Source: an uncultured archaeon (GTDB lineage: Archaea > Iainarchaeota > Iainarchaeia > Iainarchaeales > JAAZKV01). From it: 64,000 nucleotides of DNA. The DNA lies in NCBI GenBank assembly GCA_964551375.1, contig CAZKBG010000001.1, positions 490,833 to 554,832 of the forward strand. The letters are read 5' to 3'. The translations under genes and the position numbers were made by a program. Below are positions 3,036 to 62,947 of this stretch, piece after piece. Each line of letters starts with the position of its first letter. Within the stretch, counting starts at the first letter, position 1. Below the pieces are notes generated by a model that saw only the letters and a list, made by a program, of their open reading frames with translations, was not told where the DNA came from and searched no databases.

Positions 3036-4274
3036 GTGGTTTTTGACATAAGTATTGGAACAAGCCAAAACTGGGATGCCAAAACAGCAACTTTAGAGGC
3101 TCTAAAAACAGCATTAAAAGGAACTGATCCCCCAAAATTTGCCCTCGTTTTTGCAACAATTCATTACTTAAAAAATAAAGGCTTACAACAGATACTTGAT
3201 ACAGTATATCAAAATGTTCCAAAAAGCACGCCTTTAATTGGAGGGACAGTTGCTGGATTTATGAATAAATCTGGTGTATTTACAAGAGGATTAACTGTAT
3301 TATTTGCATATTCTGACGAGATAGATGTAAAAGCTAATATTGGCTATAACACAAAAAGATCCCCTACAATAGCTGCAAAAGATTGTTCAAAAGGATTATT
3401 ATCAACTACTGGTAAAAAAAATAATTTTATATTTCTAGTATCAAGTGCTGTTGTTCCAAATGTCCCAATATTTAATAAAAAGGTTGTACAGTTAAGCGCA
3501 ATATCCCCTTTTGTAAAAATATTTGATACATTTTCTTCGCTTTTACAAATTGGACCAAGCAGAGACGAAACTGTGTTTAATGAATTCTCAAACGAGATGA
3601 AAGATAGTGTTGGAATTGGCGGAGGCGTTTGTGATAATTTAGAATTATTTAATAATTATGTATTTTACAATAACAAAGTTATAACAAATAGTGTTGTAGC
3701 TCTTGCGATTAGCAGTAATACTCAATACACTGTTAGAACCAGTAGCCGATTATTCCCAACTCAAAAGAAGCTCAATATAAGCAAATTATCAAAAAGTAGA
3801 TATGTTATAGAAAAAATAAATGGCAACCCCCCTCTTGACGAATATCTAAAAATAATGGGTTGGCCAAAAGACTTTATTGATGAACGAATGTACCGAAAAA
3901 TATTTTATTACCCAATAATAAATGAAGCTAATAAAAATAAAGAATCTCGAATGTTTGGTTTGGTTTATGGAAATCAATTTATTTGCCCAATGAAAATTTA
4001 TCCTGGAGAAAGCCAATTATACACATCATCAGGAAAAGACTTAATAGATTCAATAACTGATGTTACTGGCGATGAGAAATCTAAATTTACATTCATTGTT
4101 TCATGCGGCACTAGACTTGAAACACTTGGACACAAAGCATACTTAATAAACCAAAAGATATTAGAAAAACACGACGGCAACTTCCTTGTAATATATACTG
4201 CAGGAGAATATTCGAAAGACACTACTAATATAAAAACAAATTATCAGACAGATAATTCATTGTCCTTTTACTAA
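3036..4274 (+). CDS. FIST-domain-like putative sensory protein
   Basis: 412 aa. The N-terminal pattern (PKFALVFATIHY...STPLIGGTVAGFMNKSGVF...GLTVLF) matches the FIST_N layout as I recall it. Confidence 0.45.
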   Translation: MVFDISIGTSQNWDAKTATLEALKTALKGTDPPKFALVFATIHYLKNKGLQQILDTVYQNVPKSTPLIGGTVAGFMNKSGVFTRGLTVLFAYSDEIDVKANIGYNTKRSPTIAAKDCSKGLLSTTGKKNNFIFLVSSAVVPNVPIFNKKVVQLSAISPFVKIFDTFSSLLQIGPSRDETVFNEFSNEMKDSVGIGGGVCDNLELFNNYVFYNNKVITNSVVALAISSNTQYTVRTSSRLFPTQKKLNISKLSKSRYVIEKINGNPPLDEYLKIMGWPKDFIDERMYRKIFYYPIINEANKNKESRMFGLVYGNQFICPMKIYPGESQLYTSSGKDLIDSITDVTGDEKSKFTFIVSCGTRLETLGHKAYLINQKILEKHDGNFLVIYTAGEYSKDTTNIKTNYQTDNSLSFY

Positions 4275-13221: not shown

Positions 13222-13292
13222 GGGGTTGTGGTATAACGGCATTACGCAAGGTTCCAGACTTTGTTATTTGGGTTCAACTCCCAATAACCCCA
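13222..13292 (+). tRNA. tRNA-Trp (anticodon CCA)
   Basis: Hand-folded cloverleaf. Acceptor GGGGTTG pairs with TAACCCC. D arm is GTA/TAC with a GG-containing loop. Anticodon stem CAAGG/CTTTG encloses loop TTCCAGA (U33, CCA, A37). T arm is TTGGG-TTCAACT-CCCAA. Discriminator is A. No CCA encoded. Confidence 0.8.
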
Positions 13293-53077: not shown

Positions 53078-54232
53078 TTGGCGAAAAAGGTGAAGAATAT
53101 GGCGGGCGAAAAAAGAAAAGCAAAGACAGTTGAAAAGGTAAGCCCTAAGGAAATTGCCGACAGAATAAGCGGAACAGCAAAAAGCATGGTCACACAAATC
53201 AACAAACTTGAAGACCCGCAGTTTACTACAATGCAGAGAGGAAAAAGCAATGTTGTTTGGGACGAGAAAAAAGGATACTTGGGACTTGGCGAAAAAGAAG
53301 TTACACGAACATTCCTTAACATTGCGCACGCAAGAAAATTCATGCAAACAAGCATGATAATGGCAAAAACACAGGAATACTTGCTGCACAACAAGACAGC
53401 GTCTATTCGTGAGATTTATTACGAATTAAAACACACAGTGGTTGATACTAAAGAAAACACTTTTGAAGGGCAGGACGAGAGCGACCCAATCATAGTTGAT
53501 CTTGAACACAGCGTTGACACTATCAGAGAAAAACTAAACCTGCACGCTAATCCCAAGGGAACACTTTACGGGGATGTAACTCTGCTTGATAGAATGCACC
53601 ACAATGATAAATTCAACGCGTCAAAACTGGGAAGAGGCGGATGGAGCATAATGTCAAGAGTTGAGCCTGAAGAAATTGAAATCGTTGACTCAAACGCAGA
53701 ATACCTGCTTGTAGCTGAAACCGAAGCAATTTTTGAAAGACTTATTGAAGAAGGATTTCCAAAAGCAAACAAATGCCTATTAATCGGAACAGGGGGACAG
53801 GCAGCAAGAGGAGCAAGAAGATTAATCCACAGAATACACCACGAGCTTGACTTGCCGACAATTGTATTCACAGACGGGGACCCTTACGGATGGTACATTT
53901 ACTCAGTAATAAAGCAGGGCTCAATGGCTCTTGCAGCGCACTCTGAATTCATGTCGGTTCCTGACGCAAAATATGTTGGAATGACTATTGATGATGTGAA
54001 AGAATACAAACTTGAAGCAGTAACAGAACACATGACTGACGGAGATATTAAAAGAGCAAAAGAAATGCTTGCTTACCCATGGTTCCAGAACAAAGAATGG
54101 CAGGCACAGCTGAAAAAAGCAATTGAAGAAAAAGTTAGAATCGAGCAGCAGGCTCTTGCAAACAAAAGACTTGACTTTGTTGCGACACAATACCTGCCTG
54201 AAAAGATTAAGAACAAAATATTTTTGCCTTAA
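53078..54232 (+). CDS. top6A: DNA topoisomerase VI subunit A (Spo11 homolog)
   Basis: 384 aa immediately downstream of top6B. Toprim-region motifs (LLVAETEAIFERL ... FTDGDPYGWYIY). Confidence 0.9.
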   Translation: MAKKVKNMAGEKRKAKTVEKVSPKEIADRISGTAKSMVTQINKLEDPQFTTMQRGKSNVVWDEKKGYLGLGEKEVTRTFLNIAHARKFMQTSMIMAKTQEYLLHNKTASIREIYYELKHTVVDTKENTFEGQDESDPIIVDLEHSVDTIREKLNLHANPKGTLYGDVTLLDRMHHNDKFNASKLGRGGWSIMSRVEPEEIEIVDSNAEYLLVAETEAIFERLIEEGFPKANKCLLIGTGGQAARGARRLIHRIHHELDLPTIVFTDGDPYGWYIYSVIKQGSMALAAHSEFMSVPDAKYVGMTIDDVKEYKLEAVTEHMTDGDIKRAKEMLAYPWFQNKEWQAQLKKAIEEKVRIEQQALANKRLDFVATQYLPEKIKNKIFLP

Positions 54233-54254: not shown

Positions 54255-54722
54255 TTATTTGCCGTTTATTACCTGAGTGAGCGACGCGCCCCCTCTTTTT
54301 CTAACACCCTGATCGCTTTGAGTTCTTCTAATAACAGGAACCCCTGCTTCTTCAAGTCTTTTAAGAAGCTCAACAGCTGCTTTTTTTGTCCCGCCATAAC
54401 GCTTCATCAAGTCATTAGCAGAAACTCCCCGCTTATGAGCAGCCTCGTCCCTAACAAACTGCGCCATTTTCCTTGCTCTTTCAATAAGCCTTGCATTAAT
54501 TTTAGGCTGTTTCACAGCGCGTGTTTGCACAAAATTCCCACGAGGCCTATACCCAGTCTCGCGCGCATGCTTAATCACAGTAGCCCTTGAAACACCGGAA
54601 TGCTCCGCAATTTGAGCATACGATACTAACGCAGGATTGCCCAAAGCAGCGCGAAGTTTCTCCTTTTGAGCAGGAGTCAACACAACAAAACCTTTTTTTC
54701 TTTTTGGACCCATAAATAACAC
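54255..54722 (-). CDS. Arg-rich helix-turn-helix protein with atypical (higher GC) composition
   Basis: 155 aa with two HTH-like segments (VSYAQIAEHSGVSRATVIKHARETGY; VSANDLMKRYGGTKKAAVELLKRLEEAGV). Codon usage is visibly more GC-rich than its neighbours. Its start overlaps the stop of the upstream Mre11-like gene by 1 nt. Confidence 0.5.
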   Translation of the reverse strand: MLFMGPKRKKGFVVLTPAQKEKLRAALGNPALVSYAQIAEHSGVSRATVIKHARETGYRPRGNFVQTRAVKQPKINARLIERARKMAQFVRDEAAHKRGVSANDLMKRYGGTKKAAVELLKRLEEAGVPVIRRTQSDQGVRKRGGASLTQVINGK

Positions 54723-55951
54723 TACTCTTTATTCATTAATAACAGTTCTGCCTTCTCATTTTCGCCAATTGAAAGCAAATCAAACAGCCTTCTTGTTTCA
54801 AAATTCTTAAGCCCTGCTTCTTCAACATTCTTTTCTAATAAATCCACGCCTAAGTCAATAACATTCTTTTTCCCAAGCTGCTCTTCTTTTAATCCCTCAA
54901 TTTTCTTCTTAAAATTCTCAATTGAGAAATTCTTTGAAACGCTAAAAACAGCTTTGTCAGAATATTTTGAAAAATCAAGTACTACATCGCTTTGAGAAAA
55001 GCCCTTTGCAAGCGAGCCGGTTAGTTTTATTCTTACAAGAGGCTTTATTTCAAAAGATTTGCCGCCCAAGAAAGAATCAACTTTTTCATTTGCTGATTTT
55101 ATTACTTCATCAGGCTTAGCGGAAGAAAAATTTATTTTAGCATAAAACAATTTTCTCTGATGAGGAAAAGGAATGAACGTTAATTTCTTTGATTTTGTTT
55201 CAAATAAATAAATTCCTTTAGGCATTTCAGCCTCAAGCTTCTTCATTTGAGTAAAAATTGCAGAGCCAGTTAAGAGAAACCTTTTACCTTCCAGATTCTG
55301 CTCGCTTGTCCAATGAAGGTGCCCATTTAGGATTAAATCAAATCCTTTAGGAAGGTCTGTGAGAGAAAGAGAGGCAATTGCATCATCATCAAAAGGGAGA
55401 AAATCAATAAAGGACTGATGAAGAAGCAAAAGATTTGTGTGATTTGGAATTGGAGTCGGATTGTACTTTTCAAGAACGGCTTTTGCATTCTTTTCAGGAA
55501 CCCCGCCCATTCCATGAATGTAAACAACTTCGCCTTCTTTTTCTAAAATTGCATACCCTGCATGAACATGAACTAAACAATTTGATTCCTCAAGAATATC
55601 AAGCGCGTTTGCAAAATCCTTCCCCCTGAACTCATGAGTTCCATGAATTCCAATAATTGGAATCCCCTTAACTTGAACCCTTTTCTCAGCGCCTAAATAT
55701 GTCCGCTTCATTTCCCTTAACTCGCCATTATTCTCGCTAAATGCATTAAATACTTTCTGCCACACTTCCTGTTCAGGAACCGCGCTGTCAAACAAATCCC
55801 CCGCGTGAAGAATGTAATCAACTTTGTGATGCTTAAACATCCTAATTGATTCTTTGAATCTGGCAAATGCCTCTTCATATCTATCCTCGCCGTTAAAGCC
55901 AAGATGGGAATCAGAAAAAATACCTAATAGCATACAATACCCCCCATCCAA
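54722..55951 (-). CDS. Mre11/SbcD-like calcineurin-type phosphoesterase (DNA repair nuclease family)
   Basis: Metallophosphoesterase motifs GIFSDSHLG, LHAGDLFD, GIHGTHE and GHLHW in canonical order. About 150-aa C-terminal extension. No Rad50 gene adjacent. Confidence 0.65.
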   Translation of the reverse strand: MDGGYCMLLGIFSDSHLGFNGEDRYEEAFARFKESIRMFKHHKVDYILHAGDLFDSAVPEQEVWQKVFNAFSENNGELREMKRTYLGAEKRVQVKGIPIIGIHGTHEFRGKDFANALDILEESNCLVHVHAGYAILEKEGEVVYIHGMGGVPEKNAKAVLEKYNPTPIPNHTNLLLLHQSFIDFLPFDDDAIASLSLTDLPKGFDLILNGHLHWTSEQNLEGKRFLLTGSAIFTQMKKLEAEMPKGIYLFETKSKKLTFIPFPHQRKLFYAKINFSSAKPDEVIKSANEKVDSFLGGKSFEIKPLVRIKLTGSLAKGFSQSDVVLDFSKYSDKAVFSVSKNFSIENFKKKIEGLKEEQLGKKNVIDLGVDLLEKNVEEAGLKNFETRRLFDLLSIGENEKAELLLMNKE

Positions 55952-55968: not shown

Positions 55969-56841
55969 CTAAGGCGCTGAAAATCTTGTTGCTCCGCCAA
56001 TAAACGGAGCGAATGCCTTAACACCAGCCAGCTTTGAATCAGCAATCGCCTCTTCTTTTGATTTTGCAAATGAAAAAAATGCTTCAAGTTCCCCTTGCGC
56101 CAAAAGCTCTTTTGCTTCAATAACAGAAATCTGCTTGAATAATCTGAAACTATTAAATGGAATAAGCCTATCTGAAAGATTTTGCGAAAGAACTTTATCC
56201 CCCATAAAGCAAACTGTGCTCCCGCACTTTAGGATGCTATAAACCAATTCAAAAATTTCAATATCTGAAGCTTTACTTGAGTTGTTCAAAATAACACATG
56301 CTCTCCTCTGGCACCCCACAGGCATTCCTTTTGCTCCGTTTACCGCCCCAAAATAAAAATAAGCTTTCTTATCCTGCGCAATGCAAAACACTTCACTCTT
56401 TGGAGAAGTCAATTTCACTTTCAAACCCTTAATAGAGTCCAATAGTTTTGCTCCAAGCTCTTCTTCAAGTTTTTTTGAAGAAAACTGTTTGCAAAAACTT
56501 TTTCCTCTTACTGCAAAAGTCCCCTCGGGCAGATTATCCTTGCTTATCTTTGCCCCAGATTCGCATAAATCGGCTAATTCAGTAAACTCAACTTCCATTG
56601 AAAGATGCATTGAATGAATTCCAAGACAAGTCAGTAAAGAATCAATCACTTTTTTAGGTTTTGAGTGATACAAAACCATTCTTCCGCCAAATTTATTGAA
56701 CTTCACCCCTTCAACACCCGCTTGTTTTAAGTAAAGCTGAATATTTTTTTTTAGCTTCTTGTTCATGAAAGAGCGAACAACAGGACTTTTTATCGCAAGC
56801 TCAGGATTTGGCACAAGAACTACACAATTAGGCTCAAACAT
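55969..56841 (-). CDS. ThiI N-terminal-like protein (ferredoxin-like + THUMP domain, PP-loop degenerate/truncated)
   Basis: N-terminal KKLKKNIQLYLKQAGVEGVKFNKFGGRMVLY and THUMP-like FAVRGKSF...AYFYFGAVNGAKGMPVG. Where ThiI has SGGxDS this protein has ILNNSSKASD, and it is only 290 aa. Confidence 0.5.
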   Translation of the reverse strand: MFEPNCVVLVPNPELAIKSPVVRSFMNKKLKKNIQLYLKQAGVEGVKFNKFGGRMVLYHSKPKKVIDSLLTCLGIHSMHLSMEVEFTELADLCESGAKISKDNLPEGTFAVRGKSFCKQFSSKKLEEELGAKLLDSIKGLKVKLTSPKSEVFCIAQDKKAYFYFGAVNGAKGMPVGCQRRACVILNNSSKASDIEIFELVYSILKCGSTVCFMGDKVLSQNLSDRLIPFNSFRLFKQISVIEAKELLAQGELEAFFSFAKSKEEAIADSKLAGVKAFAPFIGGATRFSAP

Positions 56842-56920: not shown

Positions 56921-57439
56921 CTACTTTTTAGAGATTAAAGCATCTTTGACGCCTTTTGAGAGCTTAATAATATTGGTTTTTCCAAAATGTTCAACTTCAA
57001 TTACCCCCCTGTCTGAAAGCCTCTGAATTACCCTATGAGACCTAAGCTTTCCAATCCCCTCAATTCGAGATATTTCAGCCTGAAGAACTTTGCCGTCATT
57101 TTCAAGCAGTTTTTGAACAACCTGCTTTTCATCCTTAGCAAGGAACTGAATTAAAATATCTGAAACATTTTTCAGATTCTTTGACTTGTCCTCAAGCCTT
57201 GAACTCATGAAGAAAAATACAAGCGCCCCTATTACAACTCCAACAATTATGAAAACAGGCGCAAGTTCAGCTAAAAAATTAGCGTAAGCTTCATGCTGGC
57301 AGACTCCATCAATTGTGCACTGCGCAGGCTCTAAATTTGTAATAATCGTAGGAAGATAAAAAGCAAGCCCGATAAGGCAAACTAATATTATTACTCCGGC
57401 AAGGGCGCGCTTGTTTGAAAAGTTAATTGAAATGTCCAT
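56921..57439 (-). CDS. Membrane-anchored winged-helix transcriptional regulator (putative metal-responsive regulator of the adjacent cop locus)
   Basis: Two N-terminal TM helices followed by a wHTH-like domain (KQVVQKLLENDGKVLQAEISRIEGIGKLRSHRVIQRLSDRGVIEV). Divergent to the copZ-like gene. Confidence 0.5.
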   Translation of the reverse strand: MDISINFSNKRALAGVIILVCLIGLAFYLPTIITNLEPAQCTIDGVCQHEAYANFLAELAPVFIIVGVVIGALVFFFMSSRLEDKSKNLKNVSDILIQFLAKDEKQVVQKLLENDGKVLQAEISRIEGIGKLRSHRVIQRLSDRGVIEVEHFGKTNIIKLSKGVKDALISKK

Positions 57440-57647
57440 ATCAAAATATACTCAAAAAGGGTTTATATGAATTACTATTCATTTAATCCCTGTAAAAAGA
57501 GCAAAAATCACGGTTTCATGAACTCGTATATATGGTTTCAGGACCAATATGTGTGGAAAACTCCAAGAAAAAAGCGATAGTGCTTTTTGGTGCCAAGAAA
57601 CCCCTAATGTTTCCCACGCACCAAAAACACTAAAAAAAGGTGAAAAT

Positions 57648-57872
57648 ATGAATGCGGAATTCAAAATAGGCGGAATACACTGCAAAAGCTGTATTGCCCT
57701 AATAAAAATGAATATTGAAGAAATAAAAGGAATAAGCGAAATCAGCGGAAATAATGACAAAGGCACACTGAAAGTAAAATACGACGAAAAGACTGCAAAA
57801 CTCACAGATATAATAAAGGCAATAGAACAGGATGGATACAAAGTAGAATCATACAAGGAAAGCAAAAATTAA
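57648..57872 (+). CDS. Heavy-metal-associated (HMA) domain copper chaperone, CopZ-like
   Basis: GIHCKSC metal-binding motif in the first beta-alpha unit. 74 aa from the internal Met, preceded by a GGTGA SD-like sequence. The ORF-track start at 57549 is probably too far upstream. Confidence 0.8.
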   Translation: MNAEFKIGGIHCKSCIALIKMNIEEIKGISEISGNNDKGTLKVKYDEKTAKLTDIIKAIEQDGYKVESYKESKN

Positions 57873-57880
57873 GCGGGGCG

Positions 57881-59413
57881 ATGAAAATGACTGAACACAA
57901 CAAGAAACTTACGCATGCAACAATCAAAATAAACAATATGGTTTGCACAAGCTGCGAAACAATCATTGAAAAAAGCGTGAAGAAGAAAAACGGGATTGAA
58001 AGAATAAATGTTGATTACAATAATGGGGAAGCAAAAGTTACTTATGATTCTTCAAAAGCGACTCTTAAGGAAATTTATGACGCAGTAAGAGAAGCAGGAT
58101 ATGAAGTTGTTGAAGGCGATGAAAAAAGAAGAATCAGCCCTACACACATTGCCCTTGGAATATTTGTGGCAATAATGCTTGTATTTGGATACTTAGCAGT
58201 ATCAAGCACGCTTGAAGGAATGAACATATCAATACCCCAAATAGATGCAGGCACAAGCGCAATAATAATTTTCTTTGTAGGACTTTTAACAGGATTTCAC
58301 TGCATAGGAATGTGCGGAGGATTTGTATTAGGATACACCGCAGAAGCAAGAAAAGCGAACCCAAAATCGCTTAACCTTGGAGCGCACGCCCAATATTCAA
58401 TTGGAAAAATAATCTCCTATTCAATAATAGGAGGAATATTTGGACTTGTTGGAAGCATATTTGTATTCAGCCCAACACTAAGAGCCATGATCGCAATAAT
58501 TGCGGGAATATTTTTAATATTTTACGCACTAAAAATGCTTAATGTTCACCCATCCTTAAGAAAACTAAGCCTTCCAAGAGGACTCTTTGACAGGCTAAGA
58601 ATCGGACCGCTAAAGAAAAGCTCAAACCCGCTTGCAATCGGACTTGCTAACGGATTATTTATCGCATGCGGACCATTACAAGCCATGTACATCCTTGCCA
58701 TGGCAACTGGCTCATTCACGGGAGGAGCAATAATATTATTTGCGTTTGCAATCGGAACACTAATCCCAATGATGGGTTTTGGAATCTTCGCCTCATTCAT
58801 AAGCAGAGGAATGCAAAACAGCATAGTAAGGATTTCGGCAATAATAGTTCTTGTAATGGGAATACTAATGATAAACAACGGATTAGTTCTGACAGGAAAT
58901 AATGTAACTTCCATATTTGCCACCCCAAACTTAAACGCTTCAAATACACAAGGCAACAACACTAATCTTGCAATTTCAAATAACCCAGCCGATTCAGGAA
59001 CTCAAACAAGCAACGGACCAGGATATCAAGTGATAAACATGGATGTAGTAGGCACAGGATACTCGCCAAACAGCTTTGTGCTCAAAACAGGAGTTCCTGT
59101 TAAATGGGTAATTAATGGAAAAGAAGTCACAGGATGCAACGGAGGAATAATAGTTCCAGCATACAACCTTGATTTTAAGATAAAAAAAGGAATACAAACA
59201 ATCGAATTCACCCCTACAAAAGCAGGAACAATAAACTGGAGCTGCTGGATGGGAATGATACCAGGACAATTTATTGTAAGAGATGATGTGAGCATTGACA
59301 AAGACGGAAAAGTTGTTCTAAGCCCAGCTATTGAAAAAGAAGCGGTTGCTAGCGCAGCCGCTGCACCAAAAGCAAGCGGACACTCATGCGGATGCGGGAT
59401 GAAAAGCGCATAA
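57881..59413 (+). CDS. Three-part fusion: N-terminal HMA domain + DsbD/CcdA-like (DsbD_2) membrane domain + C-terminal cupredoxin-like domain
   Basis: HMA motif NMVCTSCE. Polytopic membrane core with Cys motifs in helices (TGFHCIGMCGGF; FIACGPLQA). Gly/Asn/Thr-rich linker, then a beta-rich domain with copper-ligand-like residues (GCNGG ... WSCWMGMIPGQF) and a terminal CGCG. Confidence 0.6.
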   Translation: MKMTEHNKKLTHATIKINNMVCTSCETIIEKSVKKKNGIERINVDYNNGEAKVTYDSSKATLKEIYDAVREAGYEVVEGDEKRRISPTHIALGIFVAIMLVFGYLAVSSTLEGMNISIPQIDAGTSAIIIFFVGLLTGFHCIGMCGGFVLGYTAEARKANPKSLNLGAHAQYSIGKIISYSIIGGIFGLVGSIFVFSPTLRAMIAIIAGIFLIFYALKMLNVHPSLRKLSLPRGLFDRLRIGPLKKSSNPLAIGLANGLFIACGPLQAMYILAMATGSFTGGAIILFAFAIGTLIPMMGFGIFASFISRGMQNSIVRISAIIVLVMGILMINNGLVLTGNNVTSIFATPNLNASNTQGNNTNLAISNNPADSGTQTSNGPGYQVINMDVVGTGYSPNSFVLKTGVPVKWVINGKEVTGCNGGIIVPAYNLDFKIKKGIQTIEFTPTKAGTINWSCWMGMIPGQFIVRDDVSIDKDGKVVLSPAIEKEAVASAAAAPKASGHSCGCGMKSA

Positions 59414-59462: not shown

Positions 59463-61661
59463 ATGAAAAAAATCACACTACAAGTAGGCGGAATGCACTG
59501 CGCAAGCTGTGCTGTGATAATCAATAAAACCCTGTCAAATAAAGAGGGCGTGAAAGAAGCTAATGTTAATTACTCTAATTCAAAAGCAACAATAGAATTT
59601 GATGAAACCAAGCTAAAGGATACAGAGTTAATTAATGCGATAAAAGGAGCAGGTTATGACGCAACACTCCTTGCAAAAAGAATTGACGCAGAAAAACAAA
59701 ATACGCTTCAAACTAAAGAAATCAAACACATTAGAAATACTTTTTTACTCAGCTTAACATTCGCACTCCCCGCATTCATAATAGGAATGGTATTAATGCA
59801 AATAGGAATTGAACTCCCACACATGGGGCTGATTCTTTTTGTTCTAGCAACCCCAGTTCAATTCATTGTAGGAAAACAATTTTATTTAGGAGCATGGGCG
59901 GCTCTGAAAAATAAAACAGCAAGCATGGACACATTAATTGCGGTAGGCACAAGCGCAGCATATTTGCTTAGTTTGTATAATATTTTATTCAACCCGACTG
60001 CGGGGCAATACTTTGAAACAAGCGCAATACTAATTACACTTGTAATTCTAGGAAAATGGCTTGAAGCAATAGCAAAAAGCAAAACAAGCGAAGCAATAAA
60101 AAAACTAATGAATTTAACTCCAAAAACAGCAAATGTAATTCGAAACCGCAAAGAAATTACAATACCTGTTGATGACATCAAACTCGGGGATTTAATTATT
60201 GTAAAACCCGGCGAAAGAATCGCAGTTGACGGCGAAATAACAAGCGGACACTCAGCAATTGATGAAAGCATGATAACAGGAGAAAGCATTCCTGTGGAAA
60301 AGAAAACAGGAGACAGCGTAATAGGGGGAACAATAAATAAACACGGAACAATTACATTCAAAGCAACAAAAATCGGCGAAAACACCACACTTGCGCACAT
60401 AATAAAACTAATTGAAGACGCTCAAGGCAAAAAAGCGCCAATACAAAGATACGCTGATACGATAAGCGGATACTTTGTTCCAGCAGTTATTGCAATTGCA
60501 ATATGCACATTTATTGTTTGGTACTTTATTTTCAATATGGGATTTTCATTCAGCATCTTAACAAGCGTAGCAGTGCTTGTAATTGCATGCCCTTGCGCAT
60601 TAGGACTAGCCACCCCAACTTCAATAATGGTTGGAACTGGGCTAGGCGCAAAATACGGGATATTAATTAAAGGAGGAGATGCTCTTGAAACTGCCCACAA
60701 ATTAAAATATGTTATTTTTGACAAAACAGGAACTATTACAAAAGGAGTTCCTGAAGTAACCGAAATAATACCTTTAGGAAAAATCAGCGCTCAAAAAGTT
60801 CTTGAAATAGCAGCAAGCATGGAAAAAACAAGCGAACACCCTCTTGCTGATGCAATTGTGGAAAAGGCAAGGCAGGATAAAATTGAGCTTAGCAAAGTTC
60901 TGCACTTTAAAGCAATAGTCGGGCACGGAATTGAAGGAGAAATAAACAAAAAGAAATATTACCTGGGAAACACAAAACTTCTGCTTAAAATCGGAATTAA
61001 ATCCGATGAAATAAAAGAAAAAATGGCAAAACTTGAAAGCGAAGGAAAAACAGTAATGATACTGGCTGATTCAAAGCAAGCGCTTGGATTAATCGCAGCA
61101 GCCGACGCAATAAAAGAAACTTCAAAAGAGGCTGTTTCTTCGCTTGAAAAACTTGGAATAGAAGTTTATATGATTACTGGAGACAACGAAAGAACAGCAA
61201 GAGCAATCGCAACACAAGCGGGAATAAAAAATATATTTGCTGAAGTTCTTCCTGCAGACAAGGCAAATTATGTGAAAAAACTTCAGGAAAACGGAAAATA
61301 CAAAGTAGCAATGGTGGGGGACGGGATAAATGACTCTCCAGCGCTTGCCCAAGCGGATATTGGAATAGCAATGGGAAGCGGAACTGATGTAGCAATGGAA
61401 ACAGGAAATATAGTACTAATGCAGAATAACCTAAAAGATGTGTCAAAAGCAATCAAACTCTCAAGAATTACAATAGGAAAAATAAAACAAAACATGTTCT
61501 GGGCATTGTTCTACAACGTGGTTGGAATACCAATCGCAGCAGGAGTGCTGTACTTTTCATTAGGAATACTCCTATCCCCAATAATCGCAGGCGGAGCAAT
61601 GGCGCTAAGCTCAGTATCCGTTGTAACCAATTCTCTTTTAATGAAAAGAAGAAAATTGTAA
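59463..61661 (+). CDS. copA: Copper-translocating P1B-type ATPase
   Basis: HMA GMHCASC, TGES, CPC (ACPCALGLATP), DKTGTIT phosphorylation site, GDGINDSPAL. Confidence 0.95.
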   Translation: MKKITLQVGGMHCASCAVIINKTLSNKEGVKEANVNYSNSKATIEFDETKLKDTELINAIKGAGYDATLLAKRIDAEKQNTLQTKEIKHIRNTFLLSLTFALPAFIIGMVLMQIGIELPHMGLILFVLATPVQFIVGKQFYLGAWAALKNKTASMDTLIAVGTSAAYLLSLYNILFNPTAGQYFETSAILITLVILGKWLEAIAKSKTSEAIKKLMNLTPKTANVIRNRKEITIPVDDIKLGDLIIVKPGERIAVDGEITSGHSAIDESMITGESIPVEKKTGDSVIGGTINKHGTITFKATKIGENTTLAHIIKLIEDAQGKKAPIQRYADTISGYFVPAVIAIAICTFIVWYFIFNMGFSFSILTSVAVLVIACPCALGLATPTSIMVGTGLGAKYGILIKGGDALETAHKLKYVIFDKTGTITKGVPEVTEIIPLGKISAQKVLEIAASMEKTSEHPLADAIVEKARQDKIELSKVLHFKAIVGHGIEGEINKKKYYLGNTKLLLKIGIKSDEIKEKMAKLESEGKTVMILADSKQALGLIAAADAIKETSKEAVSSLEKLGIEVYMITGDNERTARAIATQAGIKNIFAEVLPADKANYVKKLQENGKYKVAMVGDGINDSPALAQADIGIAMGSGTDVAMETGNIVLMQNNLKDVSKAIKLSRITIGKIKQNMFWALFYNVVGIPIAAGVLYFSLGILLSPIIAGGAMALSSVSVVTNSLLMKRRKL

Positions 61662-61734: not shown

Positions 61735-62763
61735 TTGGAAAAAAAAGGATTTAACAACAACAAATACTTCAAAGCCCAATTAAAAGCAATAAAAAAAAGG
61801 GCTGGAAAATTTGACAGAGTATACCTTGAGATAGGCGGAAGATTGACTTACGACGGACATGCCTCAAGAGTAATGCCCGGATATAATCCAAAAAATAAAG
61901 TTGAACTTTTAAAAATACTGAAAAATGATGTTGAAGTGCTTTACTGCATAAGCTCTCACGAACTACAAAAAGGAACTAAATGGAGCAATACAGGAATGAC
62001 ACTAAATAAACTTGCGCTAAAAGAAATAGCAGAACTTGAGAGCTACGGGATAAAAGTGCATGGGGTAGTAGCAACACGCTTCAAAGGCGAAAAGAAAGTC
62101 CTTGAGTTCAAAAAAGAACTTGAAGAAACAGGAAAAGATTTATACACAACTTACAACATTGAAGGGTATCCTTACGAAATGCACCACATCTTTGGAAAAC
62201 ATGGATTTAATGCTCAGCCGTACATTCCAACGACTCGAAAAATAATTGTAGTAACAGGCGCAGGAGCAAATTCAGGCAAAATGTTTGTATGTCTCTCTCA
62301 AATCTTCCACGAAGACAAAAGAGGACTTGACAGCGGATTTGCAAAGTGGGAAACATTCCCAATATGGAACCTTCCGCTAAATCATGAAGTCAACATTGCC
62401 TACGAAGCAGCAACTGCTGATATTAAAGATGTAATAATGATTGATCCATTTCACAAAAAGAAATACGGAATTGATGCTGTGAACTACAACAGGGATGTTG
62501 AGAACTTTTATATTTTGAAAAAAATCATCACAAAAATTGCAAAACCGCACAACTTCATGCACAAATACAACTCCCCCACAGATATGGGAATGAATATGGC
62601 AAAAAAAGGGATAGTAAATGACGCTGTTTGCAGAGCTGCTGGAAGAGAAGAAATAATTCGAAGAAACGAATTCTACAAAAAAGAGCTGAAAGGGACTGCC
62701 AGAGAAGAAACACTAAAAAGAATGGAAGAAATATTCAAATCCGCCAAAATTGCGCTTAAATAA
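61735..62763 (+). CDS. Conserved hypothetical protein
   Basis: 342-aa ORF with good coding character. No family confidently recognised from memory. Confidence 0.4.
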   Translation: MEKKGFNNNKYFKAQLKAIKKRAGKFDRVYLEIGGRLTYDGHASRVMPGYNPKNKVELLKILKNDVEVLYCISSHELQKGTKWSNTGMTLNKLALKEIAELESYGIKVHGVVATRFKGEKKVLEFKKELEETGKDLYTTYNIEGYPYEMHHIFGKHGFNAQPYIPTTRKIIVVTGAGANSGKMFVCLSQIFHEDKRGLDSGFAKWETFPIWNLPLNHEVNIAYEAATADIKDVIMIDPFHKKKYGIDAVNYNRDVENFYILKKIITKIAKPHNFMHKYNSPTDMGMNMAKKGIVNDAVCRAAGREEIIRRNEFYKKELKGTAREETLKRMEEIFKSAKIALK

Positions 62764-62785
62764 TTCGACTAAATTGATTAAAAAA

Positions 62786-62856
62786 AGCAGGGAAAGGGAG
62801 TTGAACCCTCCTAACTCCCTCTGCAGGGGAGTGCATAACCGCTTTGCTATCCCTGC
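62786..62856 (-). tRNA. tRNA-Cys (anticodon GCA)
   Basis: Reverse complement GCAGGGA-TA-GCA-AAGCGGTTA-TGC-A-CTCCC-CTGCAGA-GGGAG-TTAG-GAGGG-TTCAACT-CCCTT-TCCCTGC folds as a cloverleaf. U33, anticodon GCA, G37, discriminator U. Confidence 0.7.
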
Positions 62857-62947
62857 CTGAATAGCAAATAAATTACCTAACATTTCATTTAAAAAACTGC
62901 TTAATTGAATGAATTAAAAAACAAACCAGCCATAAAATAAGCTAAAT

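Follow-up and report, generated by a model that had tools for sequence, protein, structure and literature searches.

Introduction

Several described proteins resemble parts of the gene reported here, which lies in a 64,000-nucleotide stretch of DNA (the window) from an uncultured archaeon of the Iainarchaeota (GenBank assembly GCA_964551375.1, contig CAZKBG010000001.1, forward-strand positions 490,833 to 554,832) and encodes, next to copZ and copA, a fusion of an HMA domain, a DsbD_2 membrane core and a CupA-type domain. The closest known counterpart of the last of these is CupA of Streptococcus pneumoniae, which has one N-terminal helix, acts on the cytoplasmic side and gives Cu(I) to the cupredoxin-type domain of CopA (PMC7558416). 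Its binuclear Cu(I) site is composed of S1, a bis-thiolate of C74 and C111, and S2, formed by C74, M113 and M115, and reviews limit the protein to a few streptococci (PMC5646241, PMC7558416). The HMA-DsbD_2 proteins of gut Firmicutes were placed by metagenomic inference among the probable members of the copper-sensing CsoR regulon (PMC4938975).

Likenesses and differences were observed between the window protein and each of the known systems. The C-terminal domain is homologous to CupA (4f2e/2mry), with the same fold and the same C...C-x-M-x-M ligands, and both proteins are membrane-tethered and encoded beside copA; unlike CupA, the window domain follows a seven-helix protein and is predicted outside the cell, and unlike pneumococcal CopA, the window CopA bears an HMA domain, not a cupredoxin domain, at its N-terminus. 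With DsbD, CcdA and ScsB the membrane core shares a Pfam clan (DsbD_2 strong, DsbD_TM weak), six helices, a cysteine in the first transmembrane (TM) helix of the core (TM1), a cysteine at a proline-containing kink of TM4 and a cysteine-bearing external domain after the core; ScsB, in addition, has been linked to copper tolerance. It differs from them in carrying H-C-x-x-M-C in TM1 where they have a single cysteine, together with extra invariant His and Met residues, in having a fused HMA metallochaperone in place of a thioredoxin partner, and in an external domain that is predicted to be a Cu(I) chaperone and not a thioredoxin or Ig-like fold. MerT/MerP and the MerTP fusion offer a functional parallel, namely an external metal domain, paired intramembrane cysteines, an HMA-type cytoplasmic acceptor and ligand exchange of a thiophilic metal, but the membrane cores are not homologous, the HMA domain lies inside here and not outside, the metal is presumably copper, and there is no reductase partner. 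The Firmicutes HMA-DsbD_2(-DUF2318) proteins (COG2836) share the HMA and DsbD_2 module and the inferred CsoR regulation (PMC4938975); their external domain is DUF2318 and not CupA-type, and they are equally uncharacterized. An archaeal parallel to them is seen in the separate DUF2318/FtrD-like genes of 17 of 80 related loci.

Judged by profile and alignment, the fusion protein belongs to the HMA and DsbD_2 families and to the CupA-type branch of Cupredoxin_1, whereas membership in the CcdA/DsbD electron transporters, in TauE/SafE or in MerT is not demonstrated. The gene is an unexceptional case within a very large, misnamed family built from known parts, and a role as a trans-membrane Cu(I) relay is tentatively proposed for its product below.

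Domain Architecture and Ligand Conservation

The original prediction, made from the sequence alone, had described a 510-amino-acid fusion gene within a cop operon in the order regulator, CopZ-like gene, fusion gene and CopA. The open reading frame and all the quoted motifs are present in the translation, the gene order is borne out by the open reading frames and the Pfam matches, and Pfam likewise agrees with the three domain calls, HMA, DsbD_2 and Cupredoxin_1. The first homology search gave more than 2,251 matches, the best 120 of which were used for motif patterns and conservation; residue conservation was read from 100–120 relatives at 39–69% identity. The top-scoring matches are from Diapherotrites/Iainarchaeota, and the closest distinct relatives align over the full length at 56–69% identity, so that, with this number of database relatives, the gene is confirmed and a chance reading frame excluded. 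A public gene call of identical sequence (P0001) starts two codons further in and yields 508 amino acids. An AlphaFold2 (AF2) model was built from 100 relatives and has a mean predicted local distance difference test (pLDDT) score of 83.

The HMA domain (PF00403) is matched at residues 14–75 with an E-value of 4e-13 (50.1 bits against a cutoff of 24.8) and carries NMVCTSCE at residues 19–26. Its modelled elements, strand 10–18, helix 24–34, strands 39–45 and 50–56, helix 62–71 and strand 75–77, follow the expected beta-alpha-beta-beta-alpha-beta order with pLDDT of about 90–98 over most of the domain, and C22 and C25 are kept in 119 of the 120 relatives.

The DsbD_2 profile (PF13386) is matched almost completely in the membrane core (residues 130–329, profile positions 2–199 of 199, E 3e-44, 151.6 bits against a cutoff of 24.9), while DsbD_TM (PF02683) reaches 22.6 bits, under its cutoff of 27.1. 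Two of the quoted motifs, FHCIGMCGG at residues 139–147 and IACGPLQ at 261–267, coincide with the conserved positions: TM1 contains the invariant G-F-H140-C141-x-x-M144-C145-G-G, the TM4 kink contains the invariant A-C263-G-P-L-Q, H169, where TM2 begins on the cytoplasmic side, is invariant, and M330, toward the outer end of TM6, nearly so. A weak alignment between the core halves (E 0.006, low probability) pairs MC145GG with AC263GP and LKM219LN with ILM330IN and would fit a CcdA-like 3+3 inverted repeat with a central cysteine pair and an additional His-Cys and Met in TM1. The top fold match of the core in the PDB is CcdA (5vkv), which is not significant (Foldseek E 0.39, TM score 0.38–0.42), and no relative was found when the core profile was compared with PDB sequences. 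Homology to MerT was considered and rejected, as the NCBIfam MerTP_fusion model gives 55.7 bits against a cutoff of 180 and matches the HMA part only (profile 114–185).

The C-terminal domain contains GCNGG at residues 418–422 and WSCWMGMIPGQ at 453–463, and Pfam Cupredoxin_1 is matched at residues 380–466 with an E-value of 1.5e-3, under its cutoff. Comparison with CupA (2mry/4f2e) by phmmer gives E 2e-11 with all S1 and S2 ligands aligned, the cysteines and the C-x-M-x-M of CupA standing opposite C419 and C455-W-M457-G-M459; the cupredoxin-type metal-binding domain of pneumococcal CopA (4f2f) is a more distant sequence match. A cupredoxin-like fold, as had been predicted, is found by Foldseek, whose best match is CupA 4f2e (1.1 Å root-mean-square deviation over 88 columns, 35% identity, TM score 0.83), followed by 4f2f and by the Bacillus anthracis Cupredoxin_1 protein 4hci. 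Sequence matches to nitrosocyanin are weak (E 0.01). C419, C455 and M457 occur in 120/120 relatives and M459 in 119/120, and M387 and W409 in this domain are also invariant or nearly so. No histidine is present anywhere in residues 381–467, which excludes a type-1 blue-copper electron-transfer site (His-Cys-His-Met). Copper binding by the C-terminal domain, as originally proposed, is thus supported by the conserved CupA-type C...CxMxM pattern, but a blue-copper electron-transfer role is not, and on the aligned ligands the domain is classified as a CupA-type binuclear Cu(I)-binding chaperone domain and not as an electron carrier.

The extension behind this domain ends in CGCGM (residues 503–507) and is disordered at 502–510 in the AF2 model. 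C503 is kept in 109 and C505 in 111 of the 120 relatives, the CGCG tail being found in about 90%, and a CxC or CC pair within the last 15 residues is seen in 104/120 close against 54/112 diverse relatives.

Membrane Topology

The AF2 model contains seven membrane helices, at residues 87–113, 127–159, 166–193, 198–219, 250–276 (with a kink at C263), 279–306 and 309–337. The first of them, TM0, precedes the six-helix core and sets the HMA domain on the cytoplasmic side, both ends of the core pointing outward. Positive charges are distributed in keeping with this arrangement, with a mean of 12.3 Lys and Arg residues in the predicted inside loops of 100 relatives and 0.3 in the outside loops. In the window protein the linker between the core and the CupA-like domain contains three N-x-S/T sequons and neither Lys nor Arg, and its pLDDT is below 50 over residues 343–378. 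LysM domains, which bind peptidoglycan outside the membrane, follow the CupA-like domain in some bacterial relatives (L072, P0045–P0050 and 2 of 90 diverse representatives). Because of the Lys and Arg bias of the loops, the linker free of both residues, the LysM domains of the bacterial relatives and the seven-helix model, a topology of seven TM helices with the HMA domain inside and the CupA-like domain outside is strongly predicted, and the extracytoplasmic location of the C-terminal domain agrees with what had been proposed for it.

Distribution, Annotation and Genomic Neighborhood

The original prediction had named an architecture widespread in databases as counter-evidence, and the combination of domains proved not to be unusual. 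An exhaustive search with residues 84–510, without the HMA domain, matched 636 of the 50%-identity clusters with E ≤ 1e-30 and 2,315 with E ≤ 1e-10, and at least 552 species genomes carry the architecture in a scan of one genome per species. The pattern of HMA, H-C-x-x-M-C, C-[GAS]-P and a later C-x-M-x-M is found in 116 of the best 120 matches. The hosts among the matches listed are mainly Woese-, Nano-, Iain-, Micr-, Aenigm-, Undin-, Nanohalo- and Altiarchaeota, with Methanoperedens, Methylococcales and Alphaproteobacteria also represented, and homologues are present on replicons of cultured bacteria, namely Acetoanaerobium, Streptomyces, Deinococcus and Mycolicibacterium. A domain scan on 90 of 148 diverse representatives detected DsbD_2 in 90/90, HMA in 76/90, Cupredoxin_1 at its threshold in 63/90 and DsbD_TM at E ≤ 1e-3 in 60/90, and a thioredoxin domain in 0/90. 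Variants with two or three tandem CupA-like domains, and with tails ending in CGCG or CCGG, were observed. CupA-type domains with the ligand set of CupA, as judged from these matches, are far more widespread than a few streptococci.

The view that the fusion had not been described was sustained, since the literature on DsbD_2, PF13386, COG2836, the combination of cupredoxin, DsbD and HMA, copper in DPANN archaea, and DUF2318 with copper yielded no study of the fusion protein; the single metagenomic mention of HMA-DsbD_2 proteins (PMC4938975) was the only one found. In the databases its relatives are named "sulfite exporter TauE/SafE family protein" or "Cytochrome C biogenesis protein transmembrane region" (PGAP, JGI).

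The genomic neighborhood was compared across 80 related loci, of which 69 have enough flank for CopA to be assessed. CopA is encoded 3' of the fusion gene on the same strand in 62/69 loci, and a small HMA (CopZ-like) reading frame directly 5' of it in 57/77, and the order copZ, fusion gene, copA is common to archaea and Methylococcales. Two alphaproteobacterial copies lack CopA, and their neighbors (a DUF5134-LysM protein and an IS66 transposase) give no functional clue. Other neighbor families among the 80 loci are FtrD-like/DUF2318 (17), DsbA-like Thioredoxin_4 (14), ArsR (11), small thioredoxin-like proteins (7) and VKOR (6). Such neighbors recur among the related cop loci, so that genes of copper handling and of external thiol-redox chemistry are repeatedly found together. 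Expanded cop loci of DPANN archaea, such as L016, L026, L032 and L048 (upstream of the fusion gene), L031 (7463–7894) and L017 (7740–8183), add FtrD-like/DUF2318 membrane proteins, Thioredoxin_4, VKOR, small thioredoxins, ArsR and a hemerythrin, and a stand-alone Cupredoxin_1 protein is encoded in the related locus L029 (7479–7964). None of these extra genes lies between copZ and copA in the window.

Two plasmids are of separate interest. On that of Streptomyces sp. NBC_00637 (L083, NZ_CP109047.1, 409583–420422) a DsbD_2-cupredoxin gene lies in a metal island together with HMA proteins, a MerR-type regulator, a P-type ATPase, two canonical CcdA genes, TlpA, a glutaredoxin and a peroxiredoxin. 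On that of Mycobacterium lentiflavum (match H16, NZ_CP092424.2, 34415–34678) a heavy-metal P-type ATPase matches the CupA-like domain, and because of this match it is suggested that cupredoxin-type metal-binding domains on CopA extend beyond streptococci as well.

Proposed Cu(I) Relay and Competing Explanations

From the observed domain identities, ligand conservation and synteny, we infer a passage of metal through the core as well as its direction. The reading that we put first, tentatively and with confidence that falls a little short of even, is that the seven-helix protein is a trans-membrane Cu(I) thiolate relay that needs no ATP and acts beside CopA. CopZ and the HMA domain of CopA would be the partners with which the cytoplasmic HMA domain exchanges Cu(I); a mid-membrane cluster of soft ligands (H140, C141, M144, C145 and C263), with H169 at the inner and M330 at the outer mouth, would pass the ion by ligand exchange along thiolate, thioether and imidazole sites; and the CupA-type domain, with the flexible CxC tail, would be held outside on a glycosylation-type linker. 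The path may accordingly be written as CopZ/HMA to H169, to C145/C141/C263/H140/M144, to M330, to the CxC tail and the CupA-like S1 and S2 sites, or the reverse, and the protein would be built like DsbD while carrying metal in place of electrons, comparable in this to MerP/MerT with Hg(II). Consistent with such a path, C22, C25, H140, C141, M144, C145, H169, C263, M330, C419, C455, M457, M459 and C503/C505 show little or no variation, His and Met serve as ligands of copper, and 76 of the 90 diverse relatives have a metallochaperone fold as the cytoplasmic partner and none a thioredoxin. As to direction, we favor movement outward, or delivery to an external sink, as an aid to CopA in detoxification, because of the operon linkage with copZ and copA and because the small genomes of DPANN archaea are expected to need little copper and to have few copper enzymes. 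With more reserve, it appears possible that the DsbD_2 core represents a new type of copper transporter, a Cu(I) conduit that works without ATP and descends from the CcdA/DsbD electron-transfer scaffold, and that it is part of an unrecognized system with a membrane-anchored regulator that may sense external copper.

Several points weigh against a Cu(I) relay. The characterized members of the clan of the core (CcdA, DsbD and ScsB) move electrons and not metals, and the cysteine pair C145/C263 appears to sit where the redox pair of the clan would, although both lines are weak. In 29/80 loci one or more genes of the FtrD-like, DsbA-like, VKOR or thioredoxin-like kinds are present, which points to thiol-redox chemistry. 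The membrane potential would drive a passive cation relay inward, so that export needs energy coupling, and the need for a second export route beside CopA is without explanation.

The first two of these points lead to the main rival, a reductant relay of the DsbD/ScsB kind, which we regard as rather unlikely overall. The core would then send electrons outward and keep the cysteines of the CupA-like domain and the CxC tail reduced, the external domain could pick up the Cu(I) released by CopA or reduce Cu(II) outside the cell, and the HMA domain would be a copper-sensing or docking module. This agrees with the place of the core in the DsbD/CcdA clan and the DsbD_TM matches of two thirds of the diverse relatives (60/90), with CcdA as the top, non-significant fold match, with the resemblance of the pseudo-symmetric pair C145/C263 to the redox pair of CcdA, with the DsbD-like arrangement of a cysteine-bearing external domain after a membrane core, and with the recurrence of DsbA-like, VKOR, thioredoxin-like and FtrD-like genes in related cop loci; CupA itself reduces Cu(II) via C74 and C111, the re-reductant of which is unknown (PMC5646241). 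The ligand set of the membrane core, however, speaks against this reading. Three intramembrane cysteines are present and not two, and they are accompanied by the invariant or nearly invariant H140, M144, H169 and M330; to our knowledge, His and Met are assigned no part in dithiol-disulfide exchange in the literature on DsbD and CcdA. What is fused on the cytoplasmic side is a metallochaperone and never, in the 90 diverse relatives, a thioredoxin, and the cop locus of the window contains no thioredoxin gene in the list of open reading frames or the Pfam scan. Streptomyces, moreover, has a separate reductant route, given the two CcdA genes and the TlpA reductase gene beside its DsbD_2-cupredoxin homologue, which suggests separate jobs for the two kinds of protein.

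A relay of copper in the opposite sense, that is, Mer-like uptake, in which the CupA-like domain and the tail catch Cu(I) and hand it to the membrane site, the HMA domain and CopZ for acquisition or sensing, as proposed for CopC/CopD, is considered improbable. The chain of sites is symmetric and silent on direction, the membrane potential favors cation entry, MerP/MerT and CopC/CopD are uptake modules encoded in resistance loci, and relatives occur in the copper-hungry Methylococcales. Yet the linkage to the exporter CopA is tight (62/69 loci), so that copper induction would load the cell with copper; the Methylococcales copies adjoin CopA too; and DPANN genomes are tiny and probably encode few copper enzymes. 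That the database names given by PGAP and JGI to the relatives are right, and the protein is a TauE/SafE sulfite/organosulfonate exporter or a CcdA of cytochrome c maturation, is scarcely credible, as both flanking domains bind copper, the conserved neighbors are CopZ and CopA and not genes of sulfur metabolism or cytochrome maturation, and a TauE/SafE identity is rejected for want of any such model among the Pfam or NCBIfam matches of the fusion protein at E ≤ 0.01.

Organization of the Cop Locus and Its Regulator

The coordinates of the fusion gene, of its parts and of the surrounding features are collected in Table 1. The window, whose best protein matches place it in a DPANN archaeon, has a G+C content of about 38%. 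The gap between copZ and the fusion gene is 8 bp and that between the fusion gene and copA 49 bp, and therefore the three genes look co-transcribed as one transcription unit. The copZ-like protein is matched by Pfam HMA (E 7e-14) and by NCBIfam CopZ-type models, and translation probably starts at the ATG given in the table, behind a GGTG ribosome-binding site 7 nt upstream of it. CopA is matched by Pfam E1-E2_ATPase, Hydrolase and HMA, and by NCBIfam ATPase-IB1_Cu with 656 bits against a cutoff of 397. Directly 3' of copA a DUF1846 protein is encoded, followed by a tRNA gene; a second tRNA gene lies far upstream, and three genes upstream of the cop locus are of ordinary housekeeping character and bear out the archaeal origin of the window.

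Table 1. Positions in the window of the fusion gene, its predicted parts and the features around it.
Feature	Position	Strand	Description
tRNA-Trp gene	13222-13292		
Topoisomerase VI subunit A	53078-54232	+	upstream of cop locus; archaeal housekeeping gene
Mre11-like metallophosphoesterase	54722-55951	-	upstream of cop locus; housekeeping
THUMP/ThiI-ferredoxin-like protein	55969-56841	-	upstream of cop locus; housekeeping
Membrane-anchored regulator	56921-57439	-	172 aa, divergent from copZ; DUF7343/TrmB-like winged helix
Candidate promoter/operator block	57510-57550	+	divergent regulator/copZ intergenic region; two GGTTTCA repeats
Inverted repeat	57584-57627		likely copZ 5' leader
copZ-like single-HMA metallochaperone	57648-57872	+	74 aa from ATG at 57648; longest open reading frame from 57549
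Fusion gene	57881-59413	+	510 aa, ATG start: HMA / TM0 / DsbD_2 core / linker / CupA-like domain / CxC tail
HMA domain	57908-58111	+	residues 10-77; metal loop M20-x-C22-x-x-C25
Extra helix TM0	58139-58219	+	residues 87-113; AF2 helix, hydropathy, K/R-rich flank before helix
DsbD_2 six-helix core (CcdA/DsbD clan)	58259-58891	+	residues 127-337
Predicted external linker	58892-59020	+	residues 338-380; disordered, Asn/Thr/Ser/Gly-rich
Predicted extracytoplasmic CupA-type cupredoxin domain	59021-59281	+	residues 381-467; ligands C419, C455, M457, M459
C-terminal extension	59282-59410	+	residues 468-510; helix 482-494, disordered Gly-rich tail, C503-G-C505-G-M
copA, Cu(I)-exporting P1B-type ATPase	59463-61661	+	732 aa, one N-terminal HMA domain
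DUF1846 protein	61735-62763	+	E 9e-116; directly 3' of copA
tRNA-Cys(GCA) gene	62785-62857	-	next after DUF1846 gene

The divergently transcribed regulator consists of a TM helix, a short external loop with C41-x5-C47-x-H, a second TM helix and a cytoplasmic winged helix, for which Pfam DUF7343 gives E 8e-10 and TrmB E 3e-3. Clustering of the neighbors places the family in 52 of the 80 related cop loci, and the loop cysteines are kept in 36–37 of 39 aligned relatives, usually in the form CxHGxxCPMW. As these conserved residues suggest, the protein may be a one-component sensor of external copper and is put forward as a candidate; no description of such a membrane-anchored regulator was found.

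Palindromic and repeat elements were detected in the intergenic region between the regulator and copZ. The two GGTTTCA repeats of the candidate block are about 21 bp apart and flank an AT-rich, TATA-like stretch, ATAT(G/A)TATGG. The block follows the consensus (A/C)(T/C)GGTTTCA-N-ATAT(G/A)TATGGTTTCAG-NN-CC(A/T)ATAT, which is also present in the orthologous intergenic regions of L005 (about 3061–3110) and L007 (about 3149–3230), and hence in three species in all; the fusion proteins of L005 and L007 are 57–58% identical to that of the window. The 9-mer ATGGTTTCA shows no enrichment across the whole window, and consequently the idea of an operator rests on the paired occurrence and on the conservation in orthologous promoters only, the block being a candidate operator and promoter. 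Downstream of it a perfect 10-nt inverted repeat, TTTTTGGTGC / GCACCAAAAA, with a loop of 24 nt is present; this repeat is not conserved in L005 or L007.

Biological Implications

The spread of the family shows CupA to be no streptococcal oddity, with the CupA-type domain predicted here on the opposite side of the membrane. Much of the DPANN radiation appears to have kept a copper-handling system of this kind, which it shares with some methanotrophs, and as the cop locus is among the few stress systems kept in very small DPANN genomes, it is probably important for them. The label "sulfite exporter TauE/SafE family protein" borne by many relatives is unsupported here and needs correction. Streptomyces and Acetoanaerobium are expected to be cultivable, and Streptomyces to be genetically workable, so their homologues make the relay hypothesis testable. 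If the Cu(I) relay is true, a class of copper transporter would be added to the P1B-ATPases, the RND pumps and the CopD/Ctr-type permeases, and the DsbD/CcdA scaffold would have been re-used for metal in place of electrons.

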